This document shows positions 1 to 7,663 of a DNA stretch of 7,663 nt, one piece after another (the first letter of the stretch is position 1; each line of letters begins with the position of its first letter). The position numbers were made by a program, and so were the translations under genes. The notes beneath the pieces are model-generated. The model had not been told where the DNA came from and did no database searches. It saw only the letters and a list, made by a program, of their open reading frames with translations. The stretch comes from PVC group bacterium (lineage in GTDB: Bacteria; GCA-001730085; JADFSZ01): positions 1 to 7,663 of the forward strand of contig JADFSZ010000084.1 in the NCBI GenBank assembly GCA_022560555.1, given 5' to 3'.

Positions 1-169
1 CCCAAGTTTCATTTGTGCACGCACTTGTTCCCGCTGTGCGAGGGGCTCCCGACCCCGCACCCACCACGACCGTAGGTCTCCTCTTTCCCTCTTTCCCAAA
101 TTTTCCCTCGTTCCCAAATTTCATTTGGGAACTCCCGCTGTGCGAGCGTCTCCAGCTCACGCACCCACC
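1..169. repeat. Imperfect direct repeat with two copies (1-65 and 113-169) in the C-rich region upstream of the first CDS
   Basis: Three blocks recur in the same order. CCCAAGTTTCATTTG (1-15) matches CCCAAATTTCATTTG (113-127) at 14/15. TCCCGCTGTGCGAG is identical at 29-42 and 133-146. CGCACCCACC is identical at 56-65 and 160-169. The offset is 112 nt for the first block and 104 nt for the other two, so the copies differ by an 8-nt indel. Copy 1 may extend beyond the left window edge. Confidence 0.6.
111..131. promoter_or_regulatory. Perfect 9-bp inverted repeat TTCCCAAAT-TTC-ATTTGGGAA, an operator-like palindrome or hairpin
   Basis: Read directly: 111-119 TTCCCAAAT is the exact reverse complement of 123-131 ATTTGGGAA, with a 3-nt spacer. 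The same half-site, TTCCCAAAT, recurs at 93-101. The site lies about 80 nt upstream of the ATG at 209. The function is inferred only. Confidence 0.35.
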
Positions 170-208
170 GGTACAGAATAACCTCACCCAAACCGTGGTA
201 TACTCAAA

Positions 209-715
209 ATGAACTCAACGAGGCTACCTCACATGGACGATTCCAGTCCGCAAAACCAAGAGTCCACCGAAGAACTTCAGCTCTGCCCTTCCTGCCTCGC
301 GCCCAACGATCCCGAATGCGATTTCTGCACCAATTGCCAAGCACCCCTCGGAGCCACAGCCGGCCTCGACCCCATAAAGAGCATCTGGGCCCGCGGCTAC
401 ATCTACCGTGAAATGGCCCACGGCAAAGCCAGCAACACCGTCATCATCGGCGCCTGGCTCATATTCGGCCCCATGGTCATGTTTACGATCATGGCCCTGG
501 CATTTGCCGTCTTCTCTTTTACCTTCGGCGCCTCACGTTTCGAAGAACCAGCCGGTGCATGGCTACTCCTCGGCCTAGCCTCCGCTACAATGGGAATCCC
601 CGCCGCCATCATCCTCTACAAGACCACCACACGCTCCATAGACAAACTCGAAGAATCCGAAGCCACCGCGTCCCCGGACAAAAACGCTGACGGCAACAAC
701 AAAGCCTCTCTGTGA
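209..715 (+). CDS. Zinc-ribbon domain membrane protein with two predicted TM helices; function unknown
   Basis: ATG-to-TGA ORF of 168 aa. The N-terminal Cys cluster is C26-x2-C29-x7-C37-x2-C40-x2-C43 (CPSC...CDFCTNC), typical of a zinc ribbon. There are two long hydrophobic stretches (about aa 76-104 and 115-136) and a polar acidic tail. Third-codon-position bias is strong: about 94 of 168 codons end in C by hand count, which supports real coding. An alternative start is the ATG at 233, preceded by GAGG at 220-223. Confidence 0.7.
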   Translation: MNSTRLPHMDDSSPQNQESTEELQLCPSCLAPNDPECDFCTNCQAPLGATAGLDPIKSIWARGYIYREMAHGKASNTVIIGAWLIFGPMVMFTIMALAFAVFSFTFGASRFEEPAGAWLLLGLASATMGIPAAIILYKTTTRSIDKLEESEATASPDKNADGNNKASL

Positions 716-734
716 ACTCTGTGCTCTCTGTGGT
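708..734. repeat. Three tandem 9-bp units with a conserved heptamer core: CTCTGTGaa CTCTGTGct CTCTGTGgt
   Basis: Read directly: CTCTGTG occurs at 708-714, 717-723 and 726-732. Units 1 and 3 extend to CTCTCTGTG (706-714 and 724-732). The repeat spans the stop codon of the 209-715 CDS and sits at the GC-content break. Confidence 0.7.
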
Positions 735-750
735 AAAAAAATTATCGATC

Positions 751-1680
751 ATGAATGAATTTGACCTGATCCGAAAAATTGCTTCAAAAATTCGCACCTC
801 TCCCCGGGTAAAAGTTGGGATTGGAGATGACTGCGCCGTTCTAAAAGACACAAAAGATACATACCTTCTGTTTGCCCAAGACACGATTGTAGAAGATGTT
901 CATTTTCGTTTGAATTCAATCACATACGAAGAAATCGGATGGAAGGCATTGGCGTGTAACATGAGTGATATCGCGTCTATGGGGGGCTGGAGTCTATCAG
1001 CCACCATCAGCATGGGTGTTCCCCGGCATGTTTCCGCAAGATCTTTAATAAAAATTTATGACGGGTTGATGAAACTTGCGAAAAGATTTGATGTGGATCT
1101 TGTCGGCGGAGATACGGTGAGAAGTCCGAAGAAATTATTTGTGAGCGTATCCATATTGGGGCGTGTCGAAAAAAAGTGCCTTGTGCTCAGAAAGGGCGCG
1201 AAGGTGGGTGATGCTGTTTTGTGTACGGGGAGCCTCGGAGGCAGTTTTTATGGAAAGCATAAACGCTTTACCCCGAGACAATCTGAAGCACGCTTTCTCG
1301 TCAAAAATTTTAATATTCATAGTATGATTGACATATCAGACGGCCTTGTAGGGGATTTAGGGCATATGTTAGTATCCTCCGGGTGCCAGGCTGTTTTGTT
1401 CGAAAGGACGATACCCATCTCAAGAGAATTAAAGAGGAAGAAGAGCTTATCAGGAAAAAAAATTAATCGTGCTCTCTACGATGGCGAGGATTATGAATTG
1501 CTTTTTTGTATAGCGTCAGAGGATGTGCGTGTGCTCTTAAACAGGGCTAAAAAACAAGGAATTCCTATCTCTCATATTGGAACAATTTCAAAAAAGGGCA
1601 AGGGGGTTATTCTCAAAACACTTGATGGTCGGTTGGTGCGTTTGCCTGTTCGTGCCTTCACTCATAATCTAATCTCGTAA
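751..1680 (+). CDS. thiL: Thiamine-monophosphate kinase (ThiL, PurM/AIR-synthase-like fold)
   Basis: The N-terminus MNEFDLIRKIASKI...VKVGIGDDCAVL...DTIVEDVHF matches the ThiL signature (EF.LI, GIGDDCA, hF). NMSDIASMGG, VGGDT and ISDGL motifs follow. The ATG at 751 is preferred over the upstream GTG at 712 because ThiL proteins normally begin at the M-x-EF-x-LI motif. Confidence 0.9.
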   Translation: MNEFDLIRKIASKIRTSPRVKVGIGDDCAVLKDTKDTYLLFAQDTIVEDVHFRLNSITYEEIGWKALACNMSDIASMGGWSLSATISMGVPRHVSARSLIKIYDGLMKLAKRFDVDLVGGDTVRSPKKLFVSVSILGRVEKKCLVLRKGAKVGDAVLCTGSLGGSFYGKHKRFTPRQSEARFLVKNFNIHSMIDISDGLVGDLGHMLVSSGCQAVLFERTIPISRELKRKKSLSGKKINRALYDGEDYELLFCIASEDVRVLLNRAKKQGIPISHIGTISKKGKGVILKTLDGRLVRLPVRAFTHNLIS

Positions 1681-1686
1681 GATCCC

Positions 1687-3072
1687 TTAGCGATTTAAAA
1701 GAGAATTTTTAGCAAGATGGAAAATGGATGTCCACATACTACCCGGGAATTTGGAGCAGTCCGTCAAGACGCATTCAAATGATTGAAGAAAATAAAGTGC
1801 ATCCTCCGGGTTGAGTGTGAGGGCCGGCAAAAGTTTAATCACATCCATGCGGTGCCCCGCCACTTGGGTTAGAATGCGGTGTTTGTTCAAGAGAGGCATG
1901 ATAATTGTCTGTGTGAATAAATCCTGATTCATCCTATGGATCATATCCCAGGCGGTTTTCATTCCTAAAGATTGAGGGCGTGTAAACTCAATCCCGATCA
2001 TGACCCCTTTCCCGCGAATCTCTTTAATAATATCATATTTTTTTCTGTGCTGATTTAAACCATCCAGAAATATTCTTTCTAGATGAATCACATTGTCCAA
2101 AATATTTTCTGATTCGATAACATGCAGTGTCGCTAAGACGGCGGCCATGGCAAGGCCGTTTTGACTAAAAGTACTGGAATGGACTACGCAGCGATCCATT
2201 TTACTAAACACACTGTCATGAATGTCCTGCCGGGATAGAACGGCTCCGACAGGAATCATCCCGCCTGAAAGAGCTTTTGATAACGTGACAATATCCGGAG
2301 TGATACCGAAATGCTCAAAGGCAAAGAATTTTCCTGTTCGTCCGCATCCTGTTTGAATCTCATCGGCAATCATTAAAGCACCGTATTTTCGACAAAGAGT
2401 TTCAGCCTGAGGGAAGTAATCATGATCAGGGAGATATACTCCCTTGCCTTGAATCGGCTCAAAAATAAATGCGGCAACATCATTGTTTTTTAAGGCTCTT
2501 TCTAATACTTCGAGATCGTTAAATGGGATCTGTTGACATCCATCCAGCAACTTACCGAATCCATCCTTGAATTCAATATTTCCGTTAACGGATAAAGGTC
2601 CGATTGTGAGGCCATGGAAGGCATGTTTGAGAAATACAAACTTATCTCTCTTTGTAAAACATTTTGCGTATTTCATGGCCGTGTCTACGGATTCAGAACC
2701 TGAATTAGTAAAAAATACGTTTTCTAAATTATCCGGAGCGATTTTGATGAGACACTCCGCGGCCAGTCCGCTCACTACGGCGCAGTCCATCTTGAGAAGG
2801 TGCGGAGCTTGAGAGCCGATAAAATCCATAATCGCTTTGACAATCACAGGATGGTTGCGGCCTAAGGCAAAAACACCATAGCCCGTGATAAAATCAATAT
2901 AACGTTTATTATCCTTGTCATAAAGGTAATATCCGTTGGCGCGTGTGTAAGCCTTGTCAAAGCCGATAGTTTTTACCACTTTGACAAATTGTTTATTGAT
3001 GTGTTTGCTGTGAAGATGGTACATGTCGCCGGTACGCTCTTTGAGAATTTTCTTTAGATCAAAATCCGCCAT
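1687..3072 (-). CDS. Class-III PLP-dependent aminotransferase (ornithine/acetylornithine/GABA/putrescine aminotransferase family); substrate not assignable
   Basis: 461-aa ORF with GYGVFALGRNHP, FTNSGSESVDTAMK and DEIQTGCGRTGKFFAFEH motifs. The Schiff-base lysine context is TLSKALSGG (Lys266, codon 2275-2277). Its ATG (3072-3070) overlaps the upstream gene's TAA by one base. Confidence 0.9.
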   Translation of the reverse strand: MADFDLKKILKERTGDMYHLHSKHINKQFVKVVKTIGFDKAYTRANGYYLYDKDNKRYIDFITGYGVFALGRNHPVIVKAIMDFIGSQAPHLLKMDCAVVSGLAAECLIKIAPDNLENVFFTNSGSESVDTAMKYAKCFTKRDKFVFLKHAFHGLTIGPLSVNGNIEFKDGFGKLLDGCQQIPFNDLEVLERALKNNDVAAFIFEPIQGKGVYLPDHDYFPQAETLCRKYGALMIADEIQTGCGRTGKFFAFEHFGITPDIVTLSKALSGGMIPVGAVLSRQDIHDSVFSKMDRCVVHSSTFSQNGLAMAAVLATLHVIESENILDNVIHLERIFLDGLNQHRKKYDIIKEIRGKGVMIGIEFTRPQSLGMKTAWDMIHRMNQDLFTQTIIMPLLNKHRILTQVAGHRMDVIKLLPALTLNPEDALYFLQSFECVLTDCSKFPGSMWTSIFHLAKNSLLNR

Positions 3073-5126
3073 TATGATTTTTCCTGTGTAGCTAAAAGTT
3101 TTTTTATGGTAATTTTCTTGATCTCGTCTACAACCTTGTATGCCGCTTCCTCTCCGGTTTTGACAAGGTCGCGAAAACGATGAAAATCGAAAAATGAAAA
3201 CTGCTCTATTTCCGGTTCAATCCGGATATCGGCATCTCTGGTTTTAAAACGTGCGTTGTTTAAACTCGATACGCCTACAGTTCGTGTAATAATCCGAATC
3301 ATGGTCGGCTCGGTAAAAAAACGATCAAAGACAGATAATAGACCTTTAGGTTTTGATTGTCGAGCGGAATCTGAATAGGGTGAATGGGTCAAAAAACGCT
3401 CGTGATAAGGTGTGACCGTTGATGTGATAATGATATGAGCCCCTTTTGATTTGAGAATATCTGCCGGAACGCTGTTAGATACGGCGCCATCAATCAAATA
3501 GTGATTTTTCCAGCGCACAGGCGGCATGAGAACGGGGATGGAAGAACTGGCTAAAAGCGCACGGTAAAGAATGCCTTTTTCGAGAACAATTTCGGAGCTG
3601 GTGATTAGATCAGTGCATAGAACATAGACAGGAATCGGAAGTTGGTCAAATGTCATATGTCCGAAAAAATCCTGCAAAAGTTTTTTAATCTTTCCGCCTT
3701 TCGTGATGGATGTGCGCGGCCAAAGTGAGTAATCTAAAATGGAAGACCTGCCTTTACCTAGATCATGAAAAAGTCGATTTTCAATCTCAGCAGCTGTTAC
3801 ACCTGTCGCGTACATAGCGCCGATCACAGCCCCCATACTTGTTCCGGAAATCATATCCACAGGAATGCCCTCTTTTTCAAATACTTTGAGAATCCCAATA
3901 TGCGCCATGGCTCGTGCTCCGCCGCTGCCAAGAGCTAAACCGATTTTAGCTCCCCCGAGCTCTCGTGCCAGGGTGTTCATCTGGCGGGTTGTTTTGCTAG
4001 CAGGCTCATCAATAACAATCGGAATTATTTTTTTGGTTTCAAAGAGAGGCTCATTTTCTCGCGTTGGAATGAGAATTGTGCTATTGATTTTTGACGCGTT
4101 CCTGATTTGCCCTAAGAGGCTTCTCGGCATAAAAACATTGTAAAACAAAGCCAATTTGGATTTAAGATTTATGTCTATCGTTTTCTCCCTAAGCTCATAG
4201 AGGAGTCGGTAAAGGTGTCTTAATGAGTCTTTTTGAGTTGTCGTTAAAATGATCGTTTTGTGAGATTGATCGATAGATTTAAAAGAAAATTCAGATTTAG
4301 GAATGCCGCTGCTGATCAAAAGTAAATCATACTTTTTGTGAAGTCCGCCGAGAAAGGGAGCTATATGTTTTGGATCCATCTCTTGTAAGAATTTTTTTTC
4401 ATCCTGACTAAATACCAGCATATCTTGAAAGTCCATAAATTTATGAACGTGCTCCTGGATGCACTCTTCACGACACTCTGGGTTGTTAATGGTTTTGAAA
4501 AACTCGTGAAGATCAGGTTTTTTTGATGTCTCACAAGAAGAGCTGTTTATGTGAAATTGGCTATTAAAATCAATAAACAAAACATTCTTGTGTGTCTCTG
4601 CCCGAAGGGAAAGCGCGAGATTTAGAGCAAAAGGAGAAGTGTTGATTTTAGGATCCGCGGTTAAAATGCTGATAATGGAGGGCGTGTAGATCAAGTCTTG
4701 TTGGATGTTTGTTTTTTTAAGCCGTTGCGACAAAATATGACTGAGATTTAATGAAATAACGTGTGATTTCGAAATGAAATCGTTAAAATCCTTTTTTGTG
4801 AGCAAGAGCATCTCAGTGTCGAGTGATGCCGTTGTTTCGGCTGATGTTTTATCTCCCGTCAAAAGCGACATCTCCCCAAAGTAATCGGAAGCATTTAAAA
4901 TGGTTAAAATCCTTTCCTTGTTATCATCTGTCTTAGGGACCTTTACAACAATCTGCCCGGATTTTACGATATAGAGATATTGCCCGACCTCATTTATATG
5001 CTGGACAACCTCACCGCGACTGTAAAAGACAAGGGAGGATTTGTTTGAAATGGAGTTGATCTCTCGATCTGAAAGAGAATGAAAAAGCGGGCAGTGTTTT
5101 AGTGTGTGATAATTAGGATTTGACAT
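3072..5126 (-). CDS. Three-domain protein: N-terminal cyclic-nucleotide-binding-like domain, central degenerate MinD/ParA-like domain, C-terminal NTE/RssA-type patatin-like phospholipase
   Basis: 684-aa ORF. The CNB-like domain spans about aa 10-135 (LFHSLSD..., FGEMSLL at 83-89). Residues 148-375 align by eye to MinD (IISILTADPKINTSPFALNLALSL...NVLFIDFN; YDLLLISSG; TIILTTT; ILIPTRENEP) but lack the P-loop lysines. The patatin domain spans about aa 394-560, with oxyanion GSGGAR (400-405), nucleophile GTSMG (Ser430, codon 3837-3839) and catalytic DGA (Asp546). Confidence 0.9.
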   Translation of the reverse strand: MSNPNYHTLKHCPLFHSLSDREINSISNKSSLVFYSRGEVVQHINEVGQYLYIVKSGQIVVKVPKTDDNKERILTILNASDYFGEMSLLTGDKTSAETTASLDTEMLLLTKKDFNDFISKSHVISLNLSHILSQRLKKTNIQQDLIYTPSIISILTADPKINTSPFALNLALSLRAETHKNVLFIDFNSQFHINSSSCETSKKPDLHEFFKTINNPECREECIQEHVHKFMDFQDMLVFSQDEKKFLQEMDPKHIAPFLGGLHKKYDLLLISSGIPKSEFSFKSIDQSHKTIILTTTQKDSLRHLYRLLYELREKTIDINLKSKLALFYNVFMPRSLLGQIRNASKINSTILIPTRENEPLFETKKIIPIVIDEPASKTTRQMNTLARELGGAKIGLALGSGGARAMAHIGILKVFEKEGIPVDMISGTSMGAVIGAMYATGVTAAEIENRLFHDLGKGRSSILDYSLWPRTSITKGGKIKKLLQDFFGHMTFDQLPIPVYVLCTDLITSSEIVLEKGILYRALLASSSIPVLMPPVRWKNHYLIDGAVSNSVPADILKSKGAHIIITSTVTPYHERFLTHSPYSDSARQSKPKGLLSVFDRFFTEPTMIRIITRTVGVSSLNNARFKTRDADIRIEPEIEQFSFFDFHRFRDLVKTGEEAAYKVVDEIKKITIKKLLATQEKS

Positions 5127-5127
5127 T

Positions 5128-5520
5128 TTAGTTTACCTTTCCAAAAGCTTTGTCAAATTCAAAAATATCCTTAAAATCATCAAGGCTGTCGTTCTCGGTC
5201 TTTGAAAGGATCTTGTGATCAAGTAGATTGTAAACAATATGACCAAAATCAATCGTTTCGTTGACACCCCAATGATCAATCACAGTCCGGACCATGGGTC
5301 CGAATTTATCATTGGCAAAATCCTTGATGCCATAAAGAAGCTCTTTGCCGGTGACGTGGCCGGGCTGAGGCCGCTTGCGGACTGTGTTCTCGAGCGCCTC
5401 AAGGACAAAAATGTAAGAGTCACGCTTGAATCGCGGATCACGTTCAACAATGCAATCCAGTGTATCCTGGAAATCTGCTTCGCTTAATTTAGGGGGGCTA
5501 TTTTCCCTCGACTGAGTCAC
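5128..5520 (-). CDS. Minf_1886-family protein (PVC-associated conserved hypothetical protein; function unknown)
   Basis: The core sequence RDPRFKRDSYIFVLEAL...HVTGKELLYGIKDFANDKFGPMVRTVIDHWGVNETIDFGHIVYNLLDHKILSKTENDSLDDFKDIFEFD matches my recollection of the Minf_1886 (TIGR04138-type) family pattern. The start is ambiguous. The GTG at 5520 is preceded by GAGGA with an 8-nt spacer and is chosen here. The longest ORF starts at the TTG at 5562 with no SD and would overlap GH3 by 65 nt. Confidence 0.7.
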   Translation of the reverse strand: MTQSRENSPPKLSEADFQDTLDCIVERDPRFKRDSYIFVLEALENTVRKRPQPGHVTGKELLYGIKDFANDKFGPMVRTVIDHWGVNETIDFGHIVYNLLDHKILSKTENDSLDDFKDIFEFDKAFGKVN

Positions 5521-7183
5521 AGCTGATTTCCTCAATAGTTTTAAATTGTTTCTGAAAATCAAAGTCGCTTGTTAGCTGCATCATCTTGAATTGGCCGTCC
5601 GGAGTACCCGAAGCAACTTTGTTTTTGCGGTACTTTTCCATTTCGCCCTGGGCGAGGATTTTTAAGACAGGAGCTCCGAGTCTTAATGATTTTCGCTTGC
5701 TCTCGTACTCGATATTTTGAATACTCAGTCTTTCATCGATAGACTTTATGATGTTCATCTTTGCTTCCCGGCTGGTAGAGTCAGGTAAAGATTCGATCAA
5801 AAAACTGTATCGTGGAGGGTCGCTTGGATCAGCTACGGCCGAAACAAAAGTAAAATCAATATCCATATCCTGCATAGTTTCGCGAACGCTTTCAATGACC
5901 TGGTTTTCATAAAGCTTCTCTCCTGTAAGAGAGCTTACCCCTTTTCCTTTTTGAATGAATGATATTAACGGCGCGTCATAAAAAAATCCATCCACTCGTA
6001 TGATATCATTCATTTCGTAGCGGTAAAGCCCGGCGGAGGTGGTCATAAAAACGAAGTATTGCTCATCTTTTTCAAGTTCATGTGCTCGATAAACAGTCGG
6101 GTCGTCTTTTTCGATATCATCCAAGCGAATAAATTCGTAAAAATTTGTTTGAATCGTCAGCACTCCGGAAGAGGAATTGTCCTCTAACGGTAATGATCCG
6201 CGAAGCTCGCTCGCAAGATATCCCCAGTCCCGAATAGGAGTTGATTCGGGAAAATAGGCTCGCAGACCTTTTAAAAATATTTTGACGCTTCCTCCTGTCC
6301 AGCAGCCGATCAAGGCCATGTTGGGCCAGACGTCCTTTGGCAGTAAACTGTTATTTTGTTCGGAGAAATTTTGCAGCTCGGACGCTCGCTTAGGATTAGG
6401 TGTTAATCCGCGTGCGATGATCTTTCTTATCGCGTCATCAATAATAAGATCTTTTTTGAGAGTTCCATCTTGGATATCACGGATAATATCTTTTTTAAAA
6501 ATATCCATTTTTCTTGCCAAAAGGAGGATCGTACTTGGATTGCATGATCCGAGGAAAGTGACATCATGTTCTACGGACAATCTCAATAGAGTGTAATACT
6601 TTGAATCATAGTCTTTAATCAGAAAAACTTCATAGGGAGCCACATAGAGTTTCCGCATTGCATTCGGGATGTTTCGATAAGCGTGTCCGGACTCGGCTCC
6701 GCACGGTATGCCGCCTTTAGTGTAGCTTTCGATTTCCGGGCTAACAAGTGTAAAAAACTTTCCTTCGAACATTCGGGGATGATCTTTGGACGCTTTGTAC
6801 AGCCAGAGCCGCATAACGGCTGCTTTGTCATTGCGTGAAGTTTTGTTCATCGGAATGTATTTTGGGGTTCCTGTCGTGCCGCTTGTTGTTGCGAAGAGTA
6901 CGGGGTCTTCACATGTGAGAATGTTTTTGGCCCCGAGGGTTAATTGATTAATGTATTTGGAAATGTCATCATAGCTCTGACGGGGGACATGCGCCTGGAA
7001 ATCGGAAACTGAATGGATCGTCTCAAAGTCATGCTCATTGCCGAACGCACATGTCTGATTATCGCGGATTATCTTTAAAAGAACGTTTTTTTGCGTCTCT
7101 TCAACCGCGCGAGAGGCTGCTTCGAATTCAGACATCCCCTTTTTGCCAAGGATGTCTAAAACGTATTTGGCTATGGTAGGCAT
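5498..7183 (-). CDS. GH3-family (auxin-responsive GH3-like) acyl-acid amido synthetase, ANL-superfamily adenylating enzyme
   Basis: 561-aa ATG ORF. The phosphate-binding motif is FATTSGTTGTPKYIP (TTSGTTGTPK = aa 99-108 at 6860-6889). GYLASE corresponds to the plant YASSE motif, and LYRYEMNDIIRV to the YRxGD motif. Length and motif order are typical of GH3 proteins. Confidence 0.88.
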   Translation of the reverse strand: MPTIAKYVLDILGKKGMSEFEAASRAVEETQKNVLLKIIRDNQTCAFGNEHDFETIHSVSDFQAHVPRQSYDDISKYINQLTLGAKNILTCEDPVLFATTSGTTGTPKYIPMNKTSRNDKAAVMRLWLYKASKDHPRMFEGKFFTLVSPEIESYTKGGIPCGAESGHAYRNIPNAMRKLYVAPYEVFLIKDYDSKYYTLLRLSVEHDVTFLGSCNPSTILLLARKMDIFKKDIIRDIQDGTLKKDLIIDDAIRKIIARGLTPNPKRASELQNFSEQNNSLLPKDVWPNMALIGCWTGGSVKIFLKGLRAYFPESTPIRDWGYLASELRGSLPLEDNSSSGVLTIQTNFYEFIRLDDIEKDDPTVYRAHELEKDEQYFVFMTTSAGLYRYEMNDIIRVDGFFYDAPLISFIQKGKGVSSLTGEKLYENQVIESVRETMQDMDIDFTFVSAVADPSDPPRYSFLIESLPDSTSREAKMNIIKSIDERLSIQNIEYESKRKSLRLGAPVLKILAQGEMEKYRKNKVASGTPDGQFKMMQLTSDFDFQKQFKTIEEISCDSVEGK

Positions 7184-7341
7184 TTTAAAGTTCGGAAATC
7201 AAAAGCACAAATCCAAATCAGCACTTTCAATTTATGAGTGTTATATTCGATAGTCTATATGCTGTTGTAAGGCTATTAAAATGAGGATTTTAACAGAAAA
7301 GAAGGGGAAGTCAATCGCTAGTGCATATCGATAGAATTGGA

Positions 7342-7370
7342 TTGACAGGTTATAGGTCGGCATATATAAT
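7342..7370 (+). promoter_or_regulatory. Consensus sigma70-type promoter for the tRNA-Leu/tRNA-Gly transcription unit
   Basis: TTGACA at 7342-7347, a 17-nt spacer, then TATAAT at 7365-7370. Both hexamers are perfect consensus at optimal spacing. The -10 element ends 37 nt upstream of the tRNA-Leu 5' end. Confidence 0.6.
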
Positions 7371-7407
7371 TCTATTTCTTTTATATATAACGATTTACGC
7401 TGTATAG

Positions 7408-7489
7408 GCGAGAGTGGCGGAATTGGCAGACGCGCTAGATTTAGGATCTAGTGTCCTCGGACGTGGGGGTTCAAGTCCCTTCTCTCGCA
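7408..7489 (+). tRNA. tRNA-Leu, anticodon UAG (type II, long variable arm)
   Basis: Folded by hand. The acceptor stem GCGAGAG (7408-7414) pairs perfectly with CTCTCGC (7482-7488), and the discriminator is A7489. The anticodon stem is CTAGA/TCTAG, and the loop TTTAGGA has TAG at 7442-7444, U33 and G37. The variable arm lies at 7452-7464. The T arm is GGGGG-TTCAAGT-CCCTT. No CCA is encoded. Confidence 0.93.
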
Positions 7490-7603
7490 TCTAAAAACGG
7501 TACATTATAAATGGTATTAGTAAATGGCCTAAAGTCTTTAGAACACCCTTTCTTTTATCTTGGCTATTTACGATTTACTATTTACGAATAACGGTTCCTT
7601 AAA

Positions 7604-7663
7604 GCGGGAGTAGCTCAGTGGTAGAGCTTCACGTTGCCAACGTGAAGGTCGAGGGTTCGAACC
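7604..7663 (+). tRNA. tRNA-Gly, anticodon GCC (3' end truncated by the window edge)
   Basis: Acceptor 5' strand GCGGGAG (7604-7610). D arm GCTC-AGTGGTA-GAGC. Anticodon stem TCACG/CGTGA, with loop TTGCCAA carrying GCC at 7636-7638. Variable loop AGGTC. The T stem GAGGG and TTCGAA loop begin before the window ends. Confidence 0.9.

Follow-up and report, generated by a model that had tools for sequence, protein, structure and literature searches.

What occupies the stretch between the two recognisable ends of a bacterial patatin lipase, and does it still handle nucleotide? The question is raised by a 684-residue protein encoded on the reverse strand of contig JADFSZ010000084.1 (PVC group bacterium, GenBank assembly GCA_022560555.1), of which we analysed positions 1 to 7,663, the whole stretch being referred to here as the window. 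The original prediction, made from the sequence by eye, described an unusual three-domain lipase in which a cyclic-nucleotide-binding (CNB) sensor and a patatin of the neuropathy target esterase (NTE) type are separated by a MinD/ParA-like domain that has lost its ATPase motifs, and suggested that this module may act in dimerisation, membrane targeting or relay. The three-part layout with a MinD-like centre holds, as Pfam matches to CNB and Patatin, a family profile, AlphaFold2 and Foldseek all agree. Our analysis indicates that the protein is probably an NTE-type phospholipase or lysophospholipase with a nucleotide-independent, MinD-derived structural or oligomerisation module, which is joined to the patatin via its terminal helix and positions a non-canonical CNB fold.

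The ~250 residues that separate CNB from patatin have no curated Pfam match when the full-length protein is scanned. Scanned alone, residues 140-390 gave a sub-threshold match to the ParA/MinD-class family AAA_31 (E=4.7e-5, 23.8 bits against a cut-off of 27), together with hits to Soj 6iub (E=0.049) and NCBIfam minD_bact (E=0.18). The pairwise alignment with Soj 6iub reproduced the blocks that had been matched to MinD by eye (SIISIL..., NVLFIDFN, YDLLLISSG and TIILTTT). At the level of single sequences such searches are suggestive and no more, and family profiles are needed. A database search yielded ~80 full-length relatives at 25-32% identity, mostly from metagenome-assembled genomes of Omnitrophota, Elusimicrobiota and Chloroflexota, several of which have precomputed AAA_31, CbiA or BcsQ matches between CNB and patatin. 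When a middle-domain profile built from a 43-sequence alignment was compared with the PDB, the best match was 3ea0, a 'ParA family ATPase' (E=6.2e-21, 223 of 247 positions), followed by VpsO, Soj, MinD, FlhG and FleN; AAA_31 was matched individually by 27 of the 43 profile members.

Structure prediction gave the same answer. AlphaFold2 modelled residues 140-392 with a predicted local distance difference test score (pLDDT) of 88.7 and a predicted template modelling score (pTM) of 0.88, and the top Foldseek matches of this model in the PDB were 3ea0 (E=1.6e-12, template modelling score 0.76), FlhG 4rz2, MinD 1hyq, ParA 8ray and Soj, at E=1e-12 to 1e-10 and scores of 0.70-0.76; TadZ 3fkq was also matched. 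Neither profiles nor models assigned residues 140-390 to an unrelated fold. The middle domain is a MinD/ParA-class SIMIBI fold, solid at the family level, and the proposal that a MinD-type fold has been kept is confirmed. It shares with MinD, Soj/ParA, FlhG/FleN, BcsQ and 3ea0 both the fold and the order of elements, namely beta-1, P-loop, helix, hhhD strand and Walker B strand. The stand-alone ParA family ATPase 3ea0 of Chlorobium tepidum has the sequence KGGDGGS, in which a Gly replaces the Walker A Lys, so pseudo-ATPase MinD-like proteins are already present among solved structures.

Column tallies from a 71-sequence homologue alignment fix the register of the ATPase motifs and bear out the by-eye placement of Asp158, Thr163 and Ser272 at the signature Lys, the Walker A Lys and the Walker B Asp, respectively. 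Where orthologues such as P0006, P0042 and P0046 read xxPGxGKT[TS], the window protein reads ADPKINTSP, with D158 at the signature Lys, N162 at a Gly, T163 at the Walker A Lys and S164 at the Ser/Thr. The signature-Lys column holds Lys in 0 of the 71 homologues and rarely in the 66 fused representatives described below; the Walker A column holds Lys in 19 of 71 and Arg in 32 of 71. At the Walker B column of the family motif hhhhDLP, the window protein has S272 (Asp in 41, Glu in 7 and Asn in 9 of 71), G274 stands in place of the DLP Pro, and H289 replaces the conserved QSD Asp. The hhhD strand that follows the P-loop helix keeps its Asp, D186. Compared with MinD/ParA, the signature Lys, the Walker A Lys and glycines, the Walker B Asp and the QSD Asp have all been replaced, and the nucleotide-handling residues are therefore gone as proposed. 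A mis-registered GKGGxGK[ST] was looked for: no intact Walker A motif was found anywhere in the 684 residues, which rules out a hidden copy elsewhere in the protein. Judged by these residues, the middle domain of the window protein has probably ceased to bind or hydrolyse nucleotide.

An exhaustive hidden Markov model (HMM) search of 1.84 billion cluster representatives showed that the fused family is not rare, with about 60 clusters at 50% identity, and provided a sample of 66 independent 50%-identity representatives. A Walker A Lys together with a Walker B Asp/Glu was found in 19/71 homologues and 19/66 representatives (about 27-29%). The other representatives have Arg with Asp/Glu (9), the acid only (18) or neither (12), or lack the acid and have Arg (5) or Lys (3) at the Walker A column. 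In a rough midpoint-rooted neighbour-joining tree of the 71 homologues, built solely on the columns of CNB and patatin, members with GK[ST] and a Walker B acid are scattered across one half, degenerate states (GRT, xRx, QNA, GVT and others) occur in several separate lineages, and every member of the clade containing the window protein is degenerate. Since relatives keep intact motifs and the window protein sits in an all-degenerate clade, the ATPase motifs appear to have been lost, and the original wording to that effect is sound. Across the family as a whole, the loss is not uniform.

The next-best HMM matches after the fused lipases were proteins of ~400 aa that carry the same domain at aa ~145-385. 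By Pfam these combine a receiver with AAA_31/ParA, one being fused to a T2SSE secretion ATPase, and their NCBIfam CpaE-type scores are sub-threshold. Unlike the window protein, they keep KGGxGK[ST]: 49/59 have the signature Lys, and 38/59 combine Lys with Asp. The nearest non-lipase relatives thus appear, by sequence, to be receiver+MinD-like proteins with a CpaE/TadZ-like layout. The sequences can be arranged in a gradient that leads from the receiver+MinD-like ATPase via fused lipases with partly intact motifs to fully degenerate forms such as the window protein. CpaE/TadZ of the Tad pili follow the same sensor-then-MinD-like logic, with a receiver where the window protein has a CNB fold; no tad or pilus genes are present in the window. 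TadZ is described, in a passage of PMC13170226 citing Xu et al. 2012, as an atypical receiver joined to an atypical ATPase that binds ATP for dimerisation. The fused family is almost without the signature Lys, so MinD-type nucleotide-sandwich dimerisation should not be assumed even for members with intact Walker A and B motifs, and the original comparison with the nucleotide-dependent MinD dimer was overstated.

How does this domain relate to the NTE family? A second group of relatives carries, between CNB and patatin, Pfam PF24179 ('NTE_Ploop: Neuropathy Target Esterase family P-loop like domain'). Profile-profile comparison with 8 NTE_Ploop sequences gave a probability of 82% (E=1e-5), and hhalign with 29 sequences gave 94.2% (E=1.1e-7), aligning all 177 columns with positions 10-248 of the MinD-like profile. 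The elements of the two profiles correspond in order, through a shared R-L-A-R-x-L-[SG]-G helix that directly precedes the patatin G-x-G-x-x-G; R388 in this terminal helix is the most conserved residue of the middle domain (99%). By this comparison the homology of the window domain to NTE_Ploop runs from end to end, but the domain lies beyond the current Pfam model. Accordingly, the architecture of the window protein would be one already listed in Pfam for the NTE family, and the subfamily of this protein would bridge NTE_Ploop to MinD/ParA. The claim of an unusual and undescribed arrangement does not survive, given PF24179 at the same position in relatives, the number of clusters, and the AAA_31/CbiA matches already annotated. 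Literature searches on P-loop, MinD or ParA in NTE and on PF24179/NTE_Ploop returned no description, and a 2025 review calls the non-catalytic (non-enzymatic) segments of NTE 'poorly defined' (PMC13224342). What is new, on the strength of the profiles, is the explicit MinD/ParA (CpaE/TadZ-like) ancestry indicated for the NTE P-loop-like domain, along with bacterial members that have intact Walker motifs.

On the evidence of the profile comparison, the window protein would share the order CNB, P-loop-like domain and patatin with the lipases of the NTE/PNPLA6 family, its closest known counterparts together with bacterial 'NTE family protein' and RssA-YchK-type patatins, and in both the ..ARxL[SG]G helix would abut the patatin. 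They differ in several respects. The window protein has one CNB domain, compared to two or three in NTE, and does not have an N-terminal transmembrane anchor, a feature of the eukaryotic NTE/PNPLA6 branch only. Its middle domain of ~245 aa is recognisable as MinD/ParA by profile, and some members of its subfamily keep intact Walker A and B motifs. NTE_Ploop, at ~180 aa, is not so recognisable: its profile gave no relevant match and no MinD/ParA in the PDB, which would put it further along the gradient of decay. A homology search with one NTE_Ploop segment returned a single fragment. The active fragment of human NTE, NEST (aa 727-1216), takes in ~200 residues that precede the patatin, and the 'putative TMDs' (transmembrane domains) at aa 734-976 of NEST, long drawn as transmembrane, are 'likely not true TMDs' (PMC6995513). 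That NEST requires residues upstream of patatin fits an obligatory structural partner domain.

The lipase itself looks competent, as predicted from its invariant catalytic residues. The oxyanion motif G400-S-G402-G-A-R is intact, and so is the Ser-Asp dyad, in which Ser430 (nt 3837-3839) is the nucleophile of G-T-S-M-G and Asp546 (nt 3489-3491) belongs to D-G-A; G400, G402, S430, G432, D546 and G547 are invariant in 70-71 of the 71 homologues. The best NCBIfam match of this part is RssA (NF007623), at 129.6 bits against a cut-off of 272 and hence below equivalog level; it covers aa 393-672 only, extending into the C-terminal extension, and places the domain in the NTE/RssA type, as anticipated. 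AlphaFold2 modelled all 684 residues with a pLDDT of 86.2 and a pTM of 0.86, the latter suggesting that the inter-domain arrangement in the model is fixed. Foldseek comparison of this model with the PDB gave single-domain matches only, including PlpD 5fya (E=1e-19), and no solved structure spans more than one of the three domains. A single-protein search of species-representative genomes likewise returned patatin-domain matches only and no close genomic relative.

We propose that this patatin enzyme acts in the cytoplasm, as a phospholipase or lysophospholipase of the NTE family (PNPLA6/RssA type). Its middle domain would descend from a MinD/ParA-class ATPase, fused in the order sensor, ATPase and lipase, that decayed to a structural module in the window lineage. 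With its conserved last helix (..ARxLGG) welded onto the first patatin strand, this domain may serve as a rigid scaffold, and probably an oligomerisation platform, that holds the CNB-fold domain in position with respect to the lipase. The enzyme would deacylate phospholipids to free fatty acids and glycerophosphodiesters in lipid turnover or catabolism. A transmembrane anchor was ruled out: the N-terminus is polar, and no transmembrane segment was found in the 684 residues, where the maximum 19-residue Kyte-Doolittle average is 1.34 and falls within the patatin core.

The gene context of homologues is lipid-catabolic. We examined six homologue loci (P0004, P0025, P0039, P0042, P0046 and P0047) and found an acyl-CoA synthetase with the lipase in four, usually together with beta-oxidation genes. 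Two of these loci begin with glycerol kinase, GDPD and the lipase and end with the acyl-CoA synthetase, the genes in between being thiolase/3HCDH/ECH in P0042 and 3HCDH/ECH/ETF in P0047. P0046 has the order lipase, acyl-CoA synthetase, DLH hydrolase, thiolase and ECH/3HCDH, and P0025 the order lipase, acyl-CoA synthetase and alpha/beta hydrolase. NTE converts phospholipid to glycerophosphodiester and fatty acids (PMC13224342), and a GDPD gene adjoining an NTE-type enzyme fits this glycerophosphodiester-releasing chemistry.

Several points weigh against the reading we favour. The beta-oxidation/GDPD context is missing from the P0004 and P0039 loci and from the window, which instead carries GH3, Minf_1886 and aminotransferase genes. 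The Pfam NTE_Ploop HMM had no direct match in the window protein or in the 43 family members, and the NTE_Ploop link rests on profile-profile comparison. The structural evidence comes from predicted models. That NTE_Ploop occupies the aa 734-976 segment of human NTE we infer from the Pfam family name only. The direction of motif loss is likely rather than proven, as the tree is a rough one. Finally, the scaffold and dimerisation role of the middle domain is something we infer, as are the substrate and any regulation.

The CNB-fold domain, although clearly recognised by Pfam, has a non-canonical phosphate-binding cassette (FGEMSLLTGDKTSAE) with Thr94 for the canonical Arg. The canonical Arg contacts the cyclic phosphate. 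In the Arg column, His is found in 55/71 homologues and Arg in 8/71, while Glu85 is kept; the family-typical PHSAT signature is gone from the window protein, which reads KTSAE. With the cassette Arg absent, cyclic-nucleotide sensing is doubtful, and calling this domain a 'CNB sensor' is unsafe.

These residues bear on the first alternative, which overlaps with the structural role proposed above. The CNB fold could bind a small molecule, either a cyclic nucleotide or another ligand, and the MinD-like domain could switch the lipase on by ligand-induced dimerisation, in analogy to MinD, ParA and TadZ, which dimerise depending on nucleotide. In the full-length model the CNB C-helix (aa 122-141) leads directly into beta-1 of the MinD-like domain, and the layout of a sensor followed by a MinD-like domain from ~aa 145 is common to the receiver+MinD-like relatives. 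The homologue P0003 stacks receiver, CNB, MinD-like and patatin domains. Precedents exist in TadZ, whose ATPase domain binds ATP for dimerisation according to the same passage of PMC13170226, and in Drosophila SWS, whose catalytic function is reported to require the CNB sites (PMC12710771). The replaced cassette Arg and the KTSAE signature argue against such gating, as does the near-absence in the fused family of the signature Lys used for sandwich dimers, and no cyclase gene was found among the window neighbours. We regard ligand-gated activation as possible but tentative. P0003 is a metagenomic protein of 821 aa; its four-domain layout includes a MinD-like profile match at aa 286-534 (E=2e-24), and its lipase part is 39% identical to the window protein.

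A less probable alternative is that the MinD-like domain brings the lipase to its substrate by binding a membrane or lipid surface, either in the manner of MinD or through an affinity like that of NEST for lipid droplets. NEST, comprising the upstream region and patatin, shows an intrinsic affinity for lipid droplets that is seen with neither of its sub-fragments by itself (PMC6995513), and MinD, CpaE and FlhG bind membranes via amphipathic helices (PMC13170226). However, the MinD-type targeting helix lies at a free C-terminus, whereas the window domain sits between two others with its C-terminus fused to the patatin. The protein also has no transmembrane-like hydrophobic segment, and a lipid-binding surface is not identifiable from its sequence. 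We therefore consider targeting by this domain unlikely.

More improbable still is residual nucleotide binding of a non-canonical kind, by which the middle domain would sense the energy state. In favour of this, the fold as a whole and D186 have been kept, Arg at the Walker A Lys column in 32/71 relatives hints that some members retain a contact to phosphate or an anion, and the best PDB match, 3ea0, is itself degenerate at the P-loop. The window protein, however, has neither Lys nor Arg at this column, and the P-loop glycines, the Walker B acid and the QSD Asp are gone as well. In the family at large, Arg at the Walker A column persists where the P-loop glycines are gone, as in KSERAF and KSQREL, which suggests that this column is selected for something besides canonical ATP hydrolysis.

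A cyclic-nucleotide-activated patatin effector of an anti-phage system, similar to CapV of cyclic-oligonucleotide-based antiphage signalling systems (CBASS) or to Pycsar, can be dismissed as highly implausible: CapV/CapE share the patatin fold (Foldseek E~1e-11) and the idea of a nucleotide-regulated phospholipase, and weak domain-level matches exist (PADLOC phospholipase 'Effector' E=1e-9, 36 bits, and PycTIR CNB region E=4e-6; NCBIfam CBASS_lipase E=2e-6 and DS2_1 antiphage phospholipase E=1e-6), but the scores are far below curated cut-offs (27 vs 200-400 bits; 27 vs 200 for CBASS_lipase), CapV-type effectors lack both the CNB and the MinD-like domain, the window protein is without the cassette Arg, the window has no cyclase (CD-NTase) or other defence gene and its neighbours no PADLOC match, and the genes around the lipase are metabolic and tightly coupled with it in an operon, with lipid-catabolic homologue loci.

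For the window gene itself, these results amount to a better annotation, as a divergent member of an NTE-family subfamily, and not to a new system. The subfamily has wider value in that sequence and predicted structure tie the region upstream of the NTE patatin to MinD/ParA. Its graded series, from intact Walker motifs to fully degenerate ones, offers an evolutionary origin for NTE_Ploop, and the fold suggests, as a hypothesis, a structural reason why active NEST would depend on its upstream region. A bolder conjecture, which we rate as plausible though more doubtful than not, is that the P-loop-like domain of NTE/PNPLA6, including the human protein, is a decayed MinD/ParA ATPase from a CpaE/TadZ-like ancestor. 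Bacterial members with GK[ST] and the Walker B acid would then be ATP-gated phospholipases, and the window protein and eukaryotic NTE would represent later, nucleotide-independent stages. If true, this would reveal a previously unrecognised coupling of lipase activity to nucleotide-dependent dimerisation. NTE/PNPLA6 underlies organophosphate-induced neuropathy and several hereditary neurodegenerative syndromes, and the bacterial proteins of the subfamily, some with intact Walker motifs and some without, are tractable subjects for asking whether the domain ever gated the lipase.

Table 1 Features of the window and of the lipase, in order of position.
Feature	Position	Strand	Basis and remarks
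Thiamine-phosphate kinase gene (ThiL)	712-1680	+	TIGR01379, 262 bits vs cut-off 184; converges on aminotransferase gene; apparently housekeeping
Class-III aminotransferase gene (ornithine/acetylornithine/putrescine type)	1687..3072	-	Pfam Aminotran_3 E=1e-90, NCBIfam; ATG overlaps lipase stop (TAATG)
Lipase gene	3072..5126	-	Open reading frame (ORF) list, 684 aa, stop codon 3072-3074; order CNB / MinD-like pseudo-ATPase / patatin
C-terminal helical extension of lipase, aa 559-684	3075..3452	-	AlphaFold2 secondary structure; long terminal helix aa 648-683
Patatin phospholipase domain, aa 397-558	3453..3938	-	Pfam Patatin E=7e-33
MinD/ParA-fold (SIMIBI) domain, predicted pseudo-ATPase, aa ~148-392	3951..4685	-	Profile vs PDB, AlphaFold2 + Foldseek, hhalign
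Walker B remnant YDLLLISSG, aa 266-274	4305..4331	-	Column tallies; family motif hhhhDLP
Degenerate P-loop ADPKINTSP, aa 157-165	4632..4658	-	Aligned to orthologues' xxPGxGKT[TS]
CNB-fold domain, aa 33-120	4767..5030	-	Pfam cNMP_binding E=4.3e-17, 62 bits vs cut-off 27.5
Minf_1886-family ORF, 144 aa	5128..5562	-	NCBIfam TIGR04138, 128 bits vs cut-off 60; ends one base before lipase ATG
GH3-family adenylating gene (acyl-acid amido synthetase type)	5498..7183	-	Pfam GH3, GH3_M, GH3_C; first in apparent operon
Promoter-like site upstream of GH3 gene	7314-7287	-	
Perfect sigma-70 consensus TTGACA-17-TATAAT	7342-7370	+	Upstream of tRNA-Leu
tRNA-Leu (anticodon TAG)	7408-7489	+	
Second tRNA, cut by window end	7604-7663	+	

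In the window, the GH3, Minf_1886, lipase and aminotransferase genes form an apparent, tightly packed operon (Table 1). The best named relative of the GH3 protein is OlsH, a lyso-ornithine-lipid synthetase, at 121 bits and thus far below the cut-off of 620. Going by these family assignments, the GH3, lipase and aminotransferase genes might, speculatively, make up an aminolipid or membrane-lipid remodelling operon. TIGR04138 is a conserved hypothetical family of Planctomycetes/Verrucomicrobia; its match begins at aa 36 of the Minf_1886 ORF, so translation probably begins at a site further downstream than the TTG at 5562. The ORF as listed overlaps the GH3 gene by 65 nt, an overlap that a downstream start would abolish. 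Minf_1886 as a constant partner of the lipase was ruled out, as it occurs in one of the six homologue loci besides the window; this second gene lies at 4555-4983 of locus L002, ~1 kb upstream of the homologue P0025.

PilZ-domain genes (c-di-GMP receptor fold; c-di-GMP, cyclic di-GMP) lie just upstream of the lipase operon in three loci (L003 1674-3665; L005 1807-3505; L002 3783-6001), and a YajQ gene stands beside them in L003 and L005. The PilZ genes raise a possible second-messenger link that is not explained by the non-canonical CNB domain. In the window, bases 1-500 have a GC content of 57%, compared to ~41-45% for most of the window. A 168-aa ORF at 209-715 (+), which has no family match, combines a Cys-rich, zinc-ribbon-like N-terminus with hydrophobic segments, and an 18-nt tandem repeat is present in 2.1 copies at 84-121.

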